From positions 1,114-65,113 of the forward strand of contig CAWEEG010000002.1 in NCBI GenBank assembly GCA_963808015.1: a stretch of DNA of 64,000 nt, in the 5' to 3' direction. The notes under the pieces were generated by a model. The model did not search any database, had not been told where the DNA came from, and saw only the letters and a program-made list of their open reading frames with translations. The stretch comes from an uncultured Actinomycetota bacterium. GTDB taxonomy: Bacteria; Actinomycetota; Acidimicrobiia; Spongiisociales; UBA5794. The position numbers and the translations under genes are program-made. How positions within the stretch are numbered: the stretch's first letter is position 1; every line of letters starts with the position of its first letter. This document shows positions 984-18,898 of this stretch, piece after piece.

Positions 984-2417
984 CTAGGTGCCGCAATCGT
1001 TGTCTTCTGCAGCGAGGTAGGAGGCACGTTCGAGGATACGTGCTCCCTCCAGGATTGTTGTGTAGTCGCTCAGGTTGCTTAGGTAGAACTCGAAATTGGA
1101 TGCAACTTCGTCACAGGAGGTCGAGGCAAGGATTCCTACGATGGCAACCCGGAACCGATCGTCACCCATCGCAATGAGCTGAGCAGCATCCGCTGTCTCG
1201 GGAGTCACGGGTCGAGCGCTAGCAGTCGATTCGTCGGTGGCCGGTTCCCGGTGCTCCTCGTCGCCGTGGATGCTGATGCAGGTTGACTTCTCGTAGTTGC
1301 AGGTAGCCGCCGACGAATGCCTGAACACCCACTCGATGTTGTCCCGGTTGTCGATCCGTTCGTGCGCACCCTCGTACCCGCTGTACTCGTACGCACCGTT
1401 CAGATCACGGGGATGCAAACGTCGGGATGAACACGGCCGAGTGTGACCGCACCGTTCCATCAGGAGGCAACACCCATGCCGGTCCCTGCGCAGGGGACGG
1501 AGTGAACTCGACACTGTCGAAACAACCGTCGTCCCACCGGTTGCCTACCCATGGGAAGTCCTCGCCGTCAGGTCGTGGCCCCGACTCCACCGGCACGATC
1601 AGCGGCAATGTCACGTCGAACCCATCGGTGAGGTTCGTCATCTCCAGCCGCACTACCGCAACAGCCGCAGCACGTTGAGGGTCCAAGCGTGCACCGTTGC
1701 ACCCTGCCGGGATCGGGACCGGCAACTGGGCCGTAGGCAACTTCTCCGGTCCTGACCAGATACGAGAAATCTGGTACCTCACGACGTAGCCGTCTTCGGT
1801 TGTCTGCACCCACTCAGCCAACAACACGCCATCGTGCGGCGATTCCTCGTTGTAGGTGCCGTCGAATCAGACGCCGAGGCGGCTTCAAGGTAGGAGGCGC
1901 AAAGACCATCCAGCTCCGGTCTTATCTTCACCGGGGAAGCCAGTACCAAGCAGAACCCAATGGAGCGACTTGAGATCCTCATAGCCGCCGTTCCACATCT
2001 CTGCCGAGAGTTCGTCGTCGCCGTGGAACCCGGGGGGCTCCCAGTTGTCTTCGTAACTGCGAGGGAGCATGACCAAGACCAACCGGTTTTCGACACCCTC
2101 TGCGAAACCCAGCGTTACAAATCCACAGCCTCCGGCCTCGTGCTCGTCTTCCACAGTCCAGTCCTCACTGGGCTGAATGCCCCACGTGAATGCTTGGCTC
2201 TCATGAGATGCCCACGCAATCGCAGAGACTGCGAGCGGGGATCGAACGGCACCGCTCGCCAGACCTCGGTAGTCGAGTCCCCGGTAGCCGCAGAAGTCGA
2301 GGATGAGGCCGAGTCGCTCGTCTCGGACATCGGCAACGCCTCACCTTCGCTGGGGCTCGAGCAGCAGGCAGTCGCAAGTACCGCAACAACCGACACAAAC
2401 ACAAGGACCTTCTTCAC
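984..2417 (-). CDS. Putative lipoprotein of unknown function, split over several frames
   Basis: ORF 2115-2417 starts with a lipoprotein-type signal (MKKVLVFVSVVAVLATAC). Co-oriented overlapping ORFs 1885-2154, 1405-1827 and 984-1514 follow. Joining them into one gene is inference. Confidence 0.5.
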
Positions 2418-2479
2418 CGTTCTTCTCCCCTTGCTCTCGCTGCATCATGCTAGGCGCGACCGTCTTGGGTCCCGCGACG

Positions 2480-2507
2480 ACCCCGCATGTCGGCACCTAT
2501 GGGCGAG
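2480..2507. repeat. dif-like site S2 (class Y spacer, reverse), empty: ACCCCGCATGT-CGGCAC-CTATGGGCGAG
   Basis: Read directly. Confidence 0.8.
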
Positions 2508-2559
2508 CCGTCAGACCGAACATAGTGAATCTCCTATGTGGGTGGTTTTGTCAAGGTGC

Positions 2560-2710
2560 TTTCGGGTTGGGTGGACAGGACTGGGTTGAGCGACACCATC
2601 TGGTGGCAGGCTCCTATGAGGTCACACCGCCCTGGCGGATGGGTGGGTGGGGTCGACAGGTCAATATGAGGACAGCATCCGAAGACGCGTCAGCCGGTTA
2701 CTGGGTCAGA
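2560..2710 (-). ncRNA. Putative bridge/seek RNA in the 3' non-coding end of IS110-A1
   Basis: On the minus strand, in order: TAACCGGC (+2693-2700), CATATTG (+2662-2668), CATAGGAG (+2611-2618), ACCCAG (+2581-2586). These match left target, right target, left donor and right donor. RNA boundaries are estimated. Confidence 0.7.
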
Positions 2711-2724
2711 CCCCACCCAGGTCG

Positions 2725-15490: not shown

Positions 15491-15500
15491 TGGTATGCCT

Positions 15501-15971
15501 CTAGTTGTCGGCAGCGACGGCGTCGATCCAGGCGGCGAAGTGGAAAGTCTGGTTTGGGATGTTCCACACGCCCAATTCGTAGGACTTGCCTTCGAGGAAT
15601 CTGGCTTCGCCCTCAAGCGTCCCACCACCCTGCACATGCATTGCAAAGTGGCCGGGATTCCCGATCCACGGCGGAGGCTTCGTCTCGGTGAGTCCCCATT
15701 CGATAGCCTCTTGCTCGGTGACGCCTTCGAACTCTTCTGGTTTGACGGGTGCGGAGGTGAAGTCAACCGTGGTTTTGGAGTCATTCACCAGCAGAAGCGT
15801 CTGCACCTCCGGATAAGCCTCGAGTTCGGATGGACCCGAATAGACGGCCGGAGTGCCATCAAAGGTGAGGGTGGGCTGTTGGTTGTCGCCCTCAGCGGCG
15901 TCGCCGCACCCAGCCAGCAGCAACACGACCACGGTAAACGGGATCGACGAACGGAAGGTGAGCATGTGCAT
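15501..15971 (-). CDS. Lipoprotein of unknown function
   Basis: Lipobox VVLLLAGC; stop codon 10 bp from site S11. Confidence 0.65.
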   Translation of the reverse strand: MHMLTFRSSIPFTVVVLLLAGCGDAAEGDNQQPTLTFDGTPAVYSGPSELEAYPEVQTLLLVNDSKTTVDFTSAPVKPEEFEGVTEQEAIEWGLTETKPPPWIGNPGHFAMHVQGGGTLEGEARFLEGKSYELGVWNIPNQTFHFAAWIDAVAADN

Positions 15972-16085
15972 GGATGGGGCTCCTCAACGCTGTCCAGTAC
16001 CAGCTCACTCCAAACGATGGTCGCAACCGCGACAACCAGGCAAGAGGCGAACGACCCTGACACGAGTCGGCATAACCATTCTCTG

Positions 16086-16138
16086 GCCGTCCATATCCGG
16101 TGCGATTTCAGGGGGTCATCGCAGCCGACATGGGCGGC
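16086..16138. repeat. Hybrid site S12: class-X left half, a solitary IS30-type IR (16101-16123), class-Y right half
   Basis: GCCGTCCATAT-CCGG | TGCGATTTCAGGGGGTCATCGCA | GCCG-ACATGGGCGGC; the insert matches the IS30 IRs at 19/23. Confidence 0.75.
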
Positions 16139-16266
16139 TCGGGCCGGTGCTCGTTACTGCGCATAGCGTTTGTTCTGGATCACATGGACTTCGCATAGGT
16201 GTCGTCCGCCTCTACCTCCTCCCCACTGGCTGATGTATGGGTGGTGGATCGACCAAGGGGTTCAGT

Positions 16267-18898
16267 ATGCGTCGAGCACTGGCAATCGCTTCGGTGACCG
16301 CTCTGATTGGGGCGGTCCTTTTCGTTGCCGGCGGATCAGGTGAAGCCGCGGACGAGTACAGGCGACAGGTATGGGTTGGTCGATCCGGCGACGGGAATCT
16401 GGCATCTGTACTGGGAGGATCAGGAGGCCAGCCAGTTCTACTTCGGGAATCCTGGTGATTTCCCGTTCATGGGCGATTGGGATTGCGACGCCATCGACAC
16501 GCCAGGCCTGTACCGCCAGTCCGATGGTTACGTCTATCTGCGCAATTCGAACACGCAGGGGATCGCCGACGTGTCGTTCTTCTTCGGGAATCCTGGTGAC
16601 GTCCCGATAGCTGGTGACTTCAATGGCGACGGCTGCGACACCGTGTCTATCTACCGTCCGTCGAATCAGATGTTCTACATAATCAACGAACTCGGAACGA
16701 ACGACGGCGGGCTCGGTGCCGCCGAGTATTCGTTCATGTTCGGGAACCCTGGTGACAAGCCCTTCATTGGCGATTTCAACGGCAATGGGCAGGACACCGT
16801 CGGTTTGCATCGTGAGTCGACGGGTTTCGTCTACTACCGCAACACGTTGACGACTGGCATTGCGGACAACGATTTCTTCTACGGCGATCCAGGGGACAGA
16901 TTCGTCGCTGGCGACTGGACGGGCAACGGGTTTGACTCGCCCGGCCTTTTCCGTCCTTCGAATACGACGATGTACCTACGGTATGAGAACACCCAGGGCA
17001 ACGCCGATGAGTCATGGGTCGCTGGGGAGGCGGATTGGCTGCCAGTGGCCGGTTTGTTCCCGGTGCCCGCTCCGCCGCCGACAGCTGATCAGGGATCGAT
17101 CGTTGGCGTAGTGACAGAGAAGGCCACCGGAACGCCGCTGTCGGAGATCGCCGTTGACGTGATCGAGTACACGGCGACCGGTTCGGTCCATAGGACGACC
17201 ACGACAGTGGCGGACGGCTCCTACGCGGTCGATGGCCTTGATGCGGGTATCTACGACGTGTTCTTCGAAGACGGTGCCGAGGGGTATGTCAGTGGCTCGG
17301 ATCCGGGCGTTCAGGTGGATCCCGGTGCAACGACAACCGCCAACATGCAGCTTGTTTCGTGGGCCACAGCGAACCAGGGATCAATCGTTGGCGTCGTGAC
17401 TGAGAGAGGAACCGGGACGCCGCTACCGGGCATCGAAGTCATGTTCGACTCACCACAGTCATACCCGAAGTACACCTCGACGGCGACCGATGGCACCTAC
17501 GCGGCTAGCGGGCTCGATCCCGGTGTCTATGACGTCATCTTCGCCGACAACAACGGCGTGTATGTCGACAAGGGCGTGCACAACGTTCAGCTCGAACCCG
17601 CTGCGACAACCACCGTCAACATGGAGCTTGTGTCCTGGGCCGTGGCAAATGCGGGGTCAATATCTGGTGTGGTGACTGCGGCAGGGACCGGCACACCGAT
17701 CCCTGGTGTCAGCATCACCGTGTATCTCCCAGGCTCAGACTTGCTAGAACGAACGAAATCGGCAGTTGATGGCACCTACGAGGTCGACAATCTCCCCCCA
17801 GGTTCCTATGGAGTTGACTTCGCCCTCATGACCCCGCTCTACGAGGCGGGATCCGTCTCCGGCGTCACGGTGGATCGGGACAAGGTCACCCTCAACCTGG
17901 AACTCACCTTGAAGCAAGGCCCGATAGAAGTCGAAGCACTCGTCACCCGGTACGCCCCAGAAATCCGGTTCCACCCGGGTGAGCAGTTCTTCATGGCCGA
18001 CCCAGTCACTACTCTCGATCTCTCCCGCCTCACCTACGGATGGTTAGATGCAGAATCCTTCTCCTTCGCGGTAGCCGGCAGTGATCCCACCTCAGCAGAC
18101 ACACTCATGTCAGATGTTGAGACGATGCTCTCGTCGGGTGTTCTCGACGATCCCCTTAGGTCTGGTGATCCCGGCTACTACATCGAAATACCAGACGCGC
18201 TCCGAGGCGGGTATCAACCCGAGGCCGTCGTCAACGTTCGCATTCTTCCGGTTGGGGAGTATCTCGATCTGCAGTACTGGTTCTTCTACCCGTTCAACGG
18301 CCACGGATGGTCGCGGGTGCAAGTCCTCGGACTGGGCTTGGGCAGCATTCCGGGTGAGAATTCATCCAAGGACACTCAGATCGGGCGCCACTATGGAGAC
18401 TGGGAACACATCACGGTGCACGTCTCGAAAGACACGCTTGAACTCCACTCGGTCTACCTGTCTCGACATGCTGGTGGCTACTGGTACACACCCGACGAGC
18501 TGAATTTCGTAGACGGCACACCCAGTTGCCTATTCAGCCAAGTTTACCCATGCCGCCTATGCAGGTCCGGGCCGACACCACTATGGCTCGGAAGGGGGTG
18601 GCGTTGTTGGACTCGTCGACTCCGCAGAGACGGGGGCGTCAGATTCCAAACCTGGGCACCGGGAGCCACCAACATCTTCTCCTCAGCGTTGCCCGGGTTC
18701 GAAGTCGAACAACCCGAATGGCTGCAATTCCAGGGGCGCTGGGGTGAATACCTTAAGAACCACTACACCCACTGGGTTTGGATCGTACCCCTATTTGCGG
18801 CCATACCCGTATGGTCAGACACGGAGTTCAAACGCGGGACCCACCGGACCAGCAATCGAGGCGCGGTGGGAGGGGACATCGACACGCCCCCGCACTAG
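16267..18898 (+). CDS. Large secreted multidomain protein: FG-GAP-like repeats, three carboxypeptidase-regulatory-like (beta-sandwich) repeats, C-terminal Vps62-like domain; frameshifted at the 5' end
   Basis: Signal MRRALAIASVTALIGAVLF in another frame; GDWDCDAIDTPGLYR and GDFNGDGCDTVSIYRP repeats; GSIVGVVT..GTPL x3; RFHPGEQFF, DLQYWFFYPFNG, HYGDWEHITV. Confidence 0.75.

Follow-up and report, generated by a model that had tools for sequence, protein, structure and literature searches.

In Mycoplasma loci of the vsa/vpma type, the DNA between inverted sites is flipped, placing one lipoprotein gene behind a single promoter. In the pdif modules of Acinetobacter plasmids, 28-bp dif-like sites of 11-6-11 layout bound accessory modules that recur in different contexts; the sites alternate in orientation and are plasmid-borne, and recombination is presumed to be the work of host XerC/D (PMC6449649, PMC13141974, PMC7399989). 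Integron cassettes, in turn, are enriched in signal peptides (16.1% vs 6.8%; PMC10661359). Here we analyse a window of 64,000 nucleotides (the whole stretch of DNA under study, C2:1114-65113) from a 2.05-Mb genome of an uncultured member of the Acidimicrobiia (57 contigs, 63% G+C, estimated 65% complete), in which positions 927-21732 hold an array of gene cassettes bounded by a 28-bp site, together with a recombinase gene and many insertion sequence (IS) elements identified by Pfam scan. We read it as one copy of an integron-like array that is spread over a genus of uncultured Acidimicrobiia; a literature search found no paper describing this array type. In the reading that we favour (probability about 70%), the cassette pool is a general accessory-gene store tilted towards the cell envelope, and the array in the window is one decaying sample of that pool, not a purpose-built device for surface variation.

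The site has a 28-bp core of the Xer/dif type, two 11-bp arms around a 6-bp spacer: CCCGCCCATAT-CGGCAC-CTATGGGCGGG. Its consensus 28-mer matches the window once, compared with zero matches expected from shuffled sequences, and a second near-intact copy lies on contig C4 of the source genome. Most of the remaining window sites survive as two halves abutting the ends of an IS that had inserted in the spacer, and sites point one way to the left of the recombinase gene and the other way to its right. Across 41 related genomes, 18 carried the site core (26 nt, up to three mismatches), nearly all within the same genus, and a reversed-pattern control gave no match anywhere. Better-assembled relatives carry uninterrupted arrays of 4-12 co-oriented sites at a spacing of 0.3-3 kb, and the sites cluster at a few loci in each genome instead of being scattered. 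When one genome per species was searched, 39 stretches with the site were returned, mostly from metagenome-assembled genomes labelled Acidimicrobiia or Actinomycetota. Some short site-bearing contigs (L023, L024, L031, L036, L037, L040-L042, L047-L049, L054 and L055) had been binned as Gemmatimonadales, Pirellulales or Kiloniellales, and one such bin shares its sample with an Acidimicrobiia bin; mis-binning of cassette arrays is the likely explanation, and horizontal spread may also have contributed.

From relatives and metagenome contigs we compiled 84 non-redundant site-to-site cassettes, containing 122 genes in 113 families (111 after removal of mobile elements). Cassettes are typically ~0.4-2 kb long (median 829 bp), and 53 of the 84 hold a single gene. 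A first-pass annotation, made from the letters of the window, had noted mixed gene orientations, which was borne out across the pool: 72 of the 122 genes point one way relative to the site and 50 the other. Site and start are separated by a median of ~185 nt, which could accommodate a promoter for each gene; transcription from such promoters, which we infer from sequence, fits both the mix of orientations and the spacing.

Genes were called with a hexamer model trained on the source genome, replacing a filter on third-position G+C (GC3) that discriminated too weakly, and export was scored with a heuristic of our own (hydrophobicity, a lipobox regular expression and alternative starts) applied identically to cassettes and background. 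At the level of families, 60% of the cassette set was exported or membrane-bound, compared with 40% genome-wide (odds ratio (OR) 2.3, P = 2.5e-5) and 35% in a size-matched background (OR 2.8, P = 2e-7). Lipoproteins were enriched further, at 11.7% vs 2.9% by the heuristic (OR 4.4, P = 5e-5) and 9.0% vs 2.0% by the strict Gram-positive lipoprotein pattern, G+LPP (P = 8e-5). The enrichment persisted when each gene was given one start, when the set was cut to confident genes and when sizes were matched. Expressed as a ratio, the bias of the pool is ~1.5-2 fold for exported or membrane proteins and ~4-5 fold for lipoproteins. A Pfam scan of 115 cassette proteins also found SnoaL, SRPBCC, aldo-keto reductase, glyoxalase, GNAT, methyltransferase, ArsR and TetR families, so that a large minority of the cassettes (~40%) is of cytoplasmic type. 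The first-pass description of the cargo as almost entirely exported is therefore true of this window, but genus-wide the exported share of cassette genes is merely ~58-60% vs ~40%.

Within the window, the array comprises the following features, in which cargo genes are lettered a to g.

927-953 (+): variant 'class X' site GAGCATATTGCCGGCTATGGGCGGGCC, the left array edge, where the homology of window positions 1-951 with paralogous loci on contigs C51 and C52 stops
984-2417 (-): cargo a, a probable lipoprotein pseudogene with lipobox LATAC, at least two frameshifts and two in-frame TGA codons
2480-2507 (+): site S1, 28 bp, degenerate, with five mismatches to the consensus
2514-3921 (-): ISa, IS110 family (Pfam PF01548 and PF02371), transposase 2725-3762
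3922-3932: lone site arm beside ISa
4126-5511 (-): cargo b, Sec-secreted, ~460 aa, family not recognised, two compensating frameshifts
5678-7172 (+): site S3, halves 5678-5692 and 7158-7172, split by ISb1 (IS110 family, 5693-7157; transposase 5811-7046)
7278-9218 (+): cargo c, an intact lipoprotein of 646 aa with a beta-propeller-like region, a DPDGNGIPCE motif and a C-terminal domain
9345-10799 (+): site S4, left half 9345-9359 and variant right arm 10785-10799, split by ISb2 (IS110 family, 9360-10784; transposase 9546-10694)
10835-11752 (-): Xer-like tyrosine recombinase gene (Pfam PF00589 and PF02899), with inverted sites on either side
11810-13099 (+): site S6, in reverse orientation, halves 11810-11824 and 13086-13099, split by ISc (IS110 family, 11825-13085; transposase 11831-12874, frameshifted)
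13152-13382 (+): cargo d, intact, 76 aa, two transmembrane helices
13427-14677 (+): site S7, halves 13427-13442 and 14660-14677, split by an IS30-family element (13443-14659; transposase 13458-14594; target-site duplication GC)
14805-15350 (+): cargo e, an intact lipoprotein of 181 aa with a predicted NTF2/SnoaL-like fold
15463-15490 (-): site S8, CCCGCCCATATCGGCACCTATGGGCGGG on the minus strand, the only intact consensus 28-mer of the window
15501-15971 (-): cargo f, an intact lipoprotein of 156 aa from a conserved family
16085-16139 (-): site remnant S8b, consisting of CCGCCCATGTCGG, a 24-nt IS30-type inverted-repeat remnant and CCGGATATGGACGGCC, dividing cassette f from cassette g
16267-18898 (+): cargo g, a secreted multidomain protein, main open reading frame (ORF) 16307-18898
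18900-20317 (+): decayed remnant of a second FG-GAP-like secreted-protein gene
20318-21732 (+): site arm (20318-20328), then a second, frameshifted ISa copy (20329-21732)

The first-pass annotation recorded the export signals of the cargo correctly; the recombinase gene, the five IS110-family copies and the one IS30-family element in this stretch went unmentioned. No tRNA gene was found within the window.

The genes of the window are real cassettes bounded by the 28-bp site. Whether homologues elsewhere are also flanked by it, a question raised by the first-pass annotation, is answered by the close homologues of c, d, e and f, which are so flanked in other genomes. Homology between cassette c and its 89% homologue (L067) extends over 7203-9359 and ends inside an intact site, the one that ISb2 splits in the window, and cassette d (13091-13442) is 79% identical, site to site, to its counterpart on contig C7 of relative G016 (L057). 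Homologues of e at 61-66% (L063, L064) have sites on one or both sides; a 76% homologue of f has a site 15 nt after its stop codon, and a 59% homologue lies inside a five-site array (L072, L073). In each homologous pair the orientation of the gene relative to the site is unchanged; between genomes, the match breaks off at the sites and other genes lie beyond. The contrary picture, homologues in stable syntenic positions free of sites, did not apply to the cassettes, but does describe their distant relatives: distant homologues of c and e and a 52% homologue of f occupy stable operons without sites, and a 54% homologue of e (L062) adjoins, from behind, a sigma gene at a locus where a repeated site was looked for and none was found. 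Judged by these relatives, the source families of the cassettes are ordinary chromosomal families.

All seven cargo genes begin with the export signals ascribed to them: lipoboxes in a (from 2417, minus strand, VKKVLVFVSVVAVLATAC), c (from 7278, plus strand, MLRRSFLFTVLVFVGATGC), e (from 14805, plus strand, MRTLLYLAIVALIATSSC) and f (from 15971, minus strand, MHMLTFRSSIPFTVVVLLLAGC), Sec-type signal peptides in b (from 5511, minus strand, MRSSSVWRVLLVVGALALLAAAVPVGAAGA) and g (from 16267, plus strand, MRRALAIASVTALIGAVLFVAGG), and two hydrophobic helices in d. The four lipobox proteins each combine a positive n-region, a hydrophobic h-region and a lipobox Cys within ~35 residues (regular expression and hydropathy), and Lgt and LspA were found in 11 of 11 genomes searched across the genus. 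The cargo, seven proteins or eight with the decayed remnant, consists of predicted envelope proteins that all bring an export signal of their own: lipoproteins of the Lgt/LspA type (a, c, e and f), Sec-secreted multidomain proteins (b and g) and a small protein with two transmembrane helices (d). The sole Lgt-family match in the incomplete genome G000, at C7:2158-2568, is to a weak paralogue containing an in-frame TGA; that assembly lacks the main lgt gene, which all relatives have.

The seven reading frames fared less evenly. Those of c, d, e and f are intact, whereas a, b and g are not open as the first-pass annotation had given them. Cargo a has at least two frame changes and two in-frame TGA codons, both of which would read as plausible Trp. 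An alternative genetic code was considered for the broken frames and rejected: read with table 4, the ORFs in the housekeeping part of the window run on from one gene into the next whichever frame is taken, so TGA is a normal stop here. The TGA codons of a are best read as TGG-to-TGA nonsense mutations, making it likely that a is a real pseudogene. It had no match in Pfam, NCBIfam or PADLOC, and neither a nor b had a homologue among 40 relatives. Cargo b falls into three pieces colinear with an intact secreted homologue of 491 aa, P0155 (residues 1-155, 180-273 and 276-364; 63-70% identity), and its homologues carry signal peptides. In cargo g, the main ORF is read in another frame than the signal peptide at 16267, with one or more further frame shifts near the 3' end; its domains are FG-GAP-like repeats, three CarboxypepD_reg/SdrD-B-like domains and a Vps62 domain, and its repeat modules have at least 20 paralogous copies elsewhere in the genome, one of them directly behind a signal peptide. 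No resistance or toxin-antitoxin gene had been recognised at first pass, and searches of the cargo with Pfam, NCBIfam and PADLOC agreed, giving none, nor any defence family.

Cargo c belongs to a large family of Acidimicrobiia. Of the two features first assigned to it, the Excalibur-like motif has a sub-threshold Pfam match (E = 0.007, 17 bits vs a cut-off of 22), the sole match of this protein; BNR-like repeats find support solely through homologues, many of which have precomputed PF25852 matches and a few PF13088, and cargo c itself has no such match. Homologues at 41-48% identity, in four independent contexts, have a cytoplasmic N-terminus and one transmembrane helix, and their genes overlap the stop codon of an extracytoplasmic function (ECF) sigma factor gene. 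In the cassette form of c and in its 89% homologue, the same lipobox replaces the cytoplasmic and transmembrane part. At L068, L069/L070 and L071, where the c-family region forms the outer domain of the membrane-anchored protein, the overlap with the ECF sigma stop is followed by a conserved gene of 175-230 aa; this set of genes looks like an uncharacterised sigma/anti-sigma-like module of Acidimicrobiia.

The structure model of cargo e (predicted local distance difference test (pLDDT) score 67.6, core >85) has the NTF2-like/SnoaL-like alpha+beta cone fold: the top Foldseek matches were all NTF2-like (3duk, 6bjt AtzH, SgcJ; probability 1.0, E = 2e-4 to 7e-3), the best of them with E = 2e-4 and template-modelling scores of 0.46/0.63, and the SgcJ/EcaC profile matched weakly, below its cut-off (E = 3.7e-5). 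Relatives of e are anchored by either a lipobox or a transmembrane helix. In the family of f, eight of nine homologues have the lipobox Cys; the model of f is a beta-sandwich of low confidence (pLDDT 59), and an immunoglobulin (Ig)-like or lytic polysaccharide monooxygenase-like fold was set aside, the matches being weak (E >= 0.025) on that low-confidence model.

The signal peptide of cargo f resembles those of other cassette lipoproteins, and some of these share more than the peptide. A leader core of ~119 nt, comprising a 5' untranslated region (UTR) with GAGGAG and the signal peptide MQPFTLRWLIPFTLVVLLLAACGD, recurs with 70-100% DNA identity in 13 genes of six genomes (L077-L089 in G004, G006, G010, G016, G017 and G018), with a diverged copy carried by f at window 15890-16100 (minus strand). 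The mature parts behind the leader belong to at least six unrelated families, including NTF2-like, alpha/beta-hydrolase-like and Cys-rich proteins. At most leader loci a 28-bp site lies ~150-200 nt, and a variant half-site ~100-125 nt, upstream of the start. At L081 (~1484-1530) the final ~27 nt of the leader, GCTGGACAAGGACGAGGAGTCC, follow immediately on the left half of a 28-bp site, CCCGCCCATATCGGCAC, a possible sign of a secondary crossover point within the leader. We raise as a tentative idea, to which we give rather low odds, that half-site CCGGTTGTGGGCGG, the 5' UTR with its ribosome-binding site GAGGAG and the 25-codon signal peptide form a portable export leader of ~120-150 nt that builds new surface lipoproteins by fusion to captured domains. 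Such fusions may arise through the recombination system, or by recombination within the leader or the Thr/Pro linker; alternatively, the leader may merely be a constrained and frequently converted 5' end. If truly modular, it would offer a way of generating novel surface proteins.

Sites with a different spacer (…CATAKCCGGCAWTATG… / CCGGTTGTGGGCGG) form a second class, seen at window 927-953, C51:57879, C52:4588 and L067:105-135; such sites mark the edges of arrays and also occur in front of leader-type lipoprotein genes. ISa, of which copies occur on contigs C4, C44 and C52 as well as at window 20329-21732, always adjoins an arm of a second-class site (CCGCCCATAWCC / GGCTGGGTG). The solo IS30-type terminal inverted repeat of 24 nt inside S8b (16101-16124) is apparently the scar of a lost IS30 element.

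The recombinase gene is itself carried like a cassette, with sites on both sides, and copies 92% identical to it occur in G016, one of which (contig C5) likewise lies between inverted sites. Its product scores ~160 bits against the XerD and XerC models of NCBIfam, below their cut-offs, and 84.7 bits against the integron-integrase model TIGR02249 (cut-off 265), to which the C-terminal part only aligns; by these profiles it is Xer-like and fails the integron-integrase model. We propose that this Xer-like tyrosine recombinase presumably excises and inserts the cassettes. Arrays that have no dedicated recombinase gene are compatible with the action of host Xer proteins, a compatibility that falls short of proof.

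Several observations weigh against the view of the pool as a general accessory-gene store sampled here by a decaying array. The recombinase gene is absent (E <= 1e-30) from G010, G017 and G018, which have large arrays, and its absence from several array-bearing genomes leaves the identity of the cassette-moving agent unproven. Exported proteins and genes were called by heuristics of our own rather than by SignalP or Prodigal, with absolute rates that are inflated (background 40%), and the background is one genome, 65% complete. Since a, b and g are broken, the organism may not produce these three of the seven proteins, and the indels in the three genes may be assembly errors. The whole case, moreover, is drawn from DNA sequence and what is predicted from it.

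The first-pass annotation had proposed that the array diversifies the cell surface for adhesion, phage or predator evasion or ligand binding, and a dedicated system that swaps lipoproteins and adhesins, like the variable-lipoprotein loci, would indeed account for a window in which all seven cargo proteins are exported and four are lipoproteins, for the ~5-fold lipoprotein enrichment of the genus-wide cassettes and for one conserved leader placed before at least six unrelated mature domains in six genomes. With our predictor, the chance of seven exported out of seven is P = 0.0015 at the genome background rate, and that of four or more lipoproteins out of seven P = 2e-5; at the cassette-wide rate, however, seven of seven is not extreme (P = 0.023). 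The ~40% of cassettes that encode cytoplasmic enzymes or regulators also speak against such a system, as do in-array sites that are direct rather than inverted, and genes in both orientations, ~185 nt from the site, with no single expression site. The window array is IS-ridden: most of its sites are split (six insertions) and three of its cargo genes disrupted, which argues that this copy is decaying and not actively diversifying a surface. Integron cassettes show a similar bias (PMC10661359), so that the bias alone is no pointer to a dedicated surface-variation function. Exported proteins, lipoproteins most of all, are significantly over-represented in the cassettes of the genus; a dedicated surface function we regard as unlikely.

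It is less likely again that the export bias is an artefact of small numbers, a permissive predictor, N-termini rich in Ala, Leu and Val at 63% G+C, and pseudogenes counted as genes. The 40% background rate of the predictor and the three disrupted genes of seven are in keeping with such an artefact, and in the strictest subset (single start, confident genes) the exported excess falls to 48.5% vs 38.1% (P = 0.046). Yet lipoboxes and anchors are conserved across homologous families, the strict lipoprotein pattern is ~5-fold enriched in every subset (P <= 1e-4), and genes flanking the arrays in the same loci contain lipoproteins at the background rate (3.2%). Hardly credible, finally, is a reading of the locus as ordinary island genes among 28-bp sequences that are merely IS targets or repetitive extragenic palindrome-like elements, with no cassette mobility. 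Most window sites are, it is true, visible merely as halves beside IS ends, cargo g comes from a large chromosomal paralogue family, and the distant homologues of c and e sit in site-free stable operons; but relatives carry uninterrupted arrays of 6-12 co-oriented sites, homology between genomes breaks at the sites while neighbours differ, and the sites keep to few loci per genome. A general, envelope-biased accessory-gene store accordingly remains the reading that we prefer.

Under this preferred reading, the window cargo appear to be binding or sensing ectodomains, with e NTF2-like, c a beta-propeller ectodomain that would correspond to the outer part of an ECF anti-sigma-like protein in other genomes, and g adhesin-like with Ig-type and FG-GAP-like repeats; these biochemical roles we infer from domain and structure comparisons. 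The likely cause of the bias is that genes at the interface between cell and environment are those most often strain-specific. Should the arrays be the counterpart of integrons in Actinomycetota, their cargo reveals which kinds of gene selection favours in such systems.

Further repeats accompany the array and its surroundings. An inositol-monophosphatase-family gene with its flank is present in three paralogous copies of 86-92% identity (window 1-951, C51:54520-58612 and C52:1241-5324), each near a contig end, and the window copy ceases to match the other two precisely where the site arm lies; these loci could represent several arrays that share one conserved edge, or different strains mixed in the bin. 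A repeat of ~50 bp, ATTCCGCGGGCTGGTGGCGCCGTATGCAGGGTGGAGAACCCTGGGTTCG, occurs at window 30775-30884, at C51:54513-54563 and on many other contigs, frequently as tandem copies of 60-61-bp period. Runs of GAGACNN heptads, in inverted arrangement, and a tandem run of ACGGACT heptads are found at window 49338-49381, 62069-62130 and 63629-63720, and also at 52129-52190.

Set beside the described systems, the arrays share something with each. Like the Mycoplasma vsa/vpma loci, they cluster lipoprotein genes beside an Xer-like recombinase and place a conserved 5' leader and signal peptide before differing mature parts (here in 13 genes); unlike these shufflon-type loci, they have sites in direct repeat, mixed cargo and no single expression site. 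With pdif modules they share a 28-bp site of two 11-bp arms and a 6-bp spacer that bounds discrete accessory genes, whereas the arrays here are chromosomal, their sites are co-oriented within each arm and flip solely across the recombinase gene, and a dedicated Xer-like gene accompanies some of them. The kinship with ECF sigma/anti-sigma modules is one of cargo: homologues of c (41-48%) are membrane-anchored and overlap an ECF sigma stop, and the 54% homologue of e lies behind a sigma gene, but the cassette versions have lost the cytoplasmic and transmembrane part, gained a lipobox and stand without an adjoining sigma gene. The cassettes thereby show ectodomains of ECF anti-sigma type re-issued as free lipoproteins.

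The closest comparison is with integrons, both sedentary chromosomal ones and clusters of attC sites lacking integron-integrases (CALIN). Here, as there, co-oriented sites lie between mostly single-gene cassettes of ~0.5-1 kb, a tyrosine recombinase of the Xer-related group is present, the cassettes are hugely diverse (113 families among 122 genes), their cargo being mostly of unknown function with GNAT, glyoxalase and SnoaL types besides, and proteins with signal peptides are significantly enriched (PMC10661359). The parts differ. The recombinase fails the IntI model (84.7 bits vs 265) and its gene is flanked by sites; the sites are 28-bp duplex-type cores of 11-6-11 layout, compared with integron attC sites of 55-140 bp, which are imperfect palindromes whose folded single strands recombine; the genes run in both orientations with room for their own promoters, which may set them apart from the promoterless, co-oriented integron cassettes behind the promoter Pc; and the host phylum is Actinomycetota. 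That the tilt towards the envelope matches that of integrons despite a different recombinase and different sites suggests a general rule on which genes profit from cassette mobility: the cargo bias described here is the known integron pattern, in a system built from different parts.

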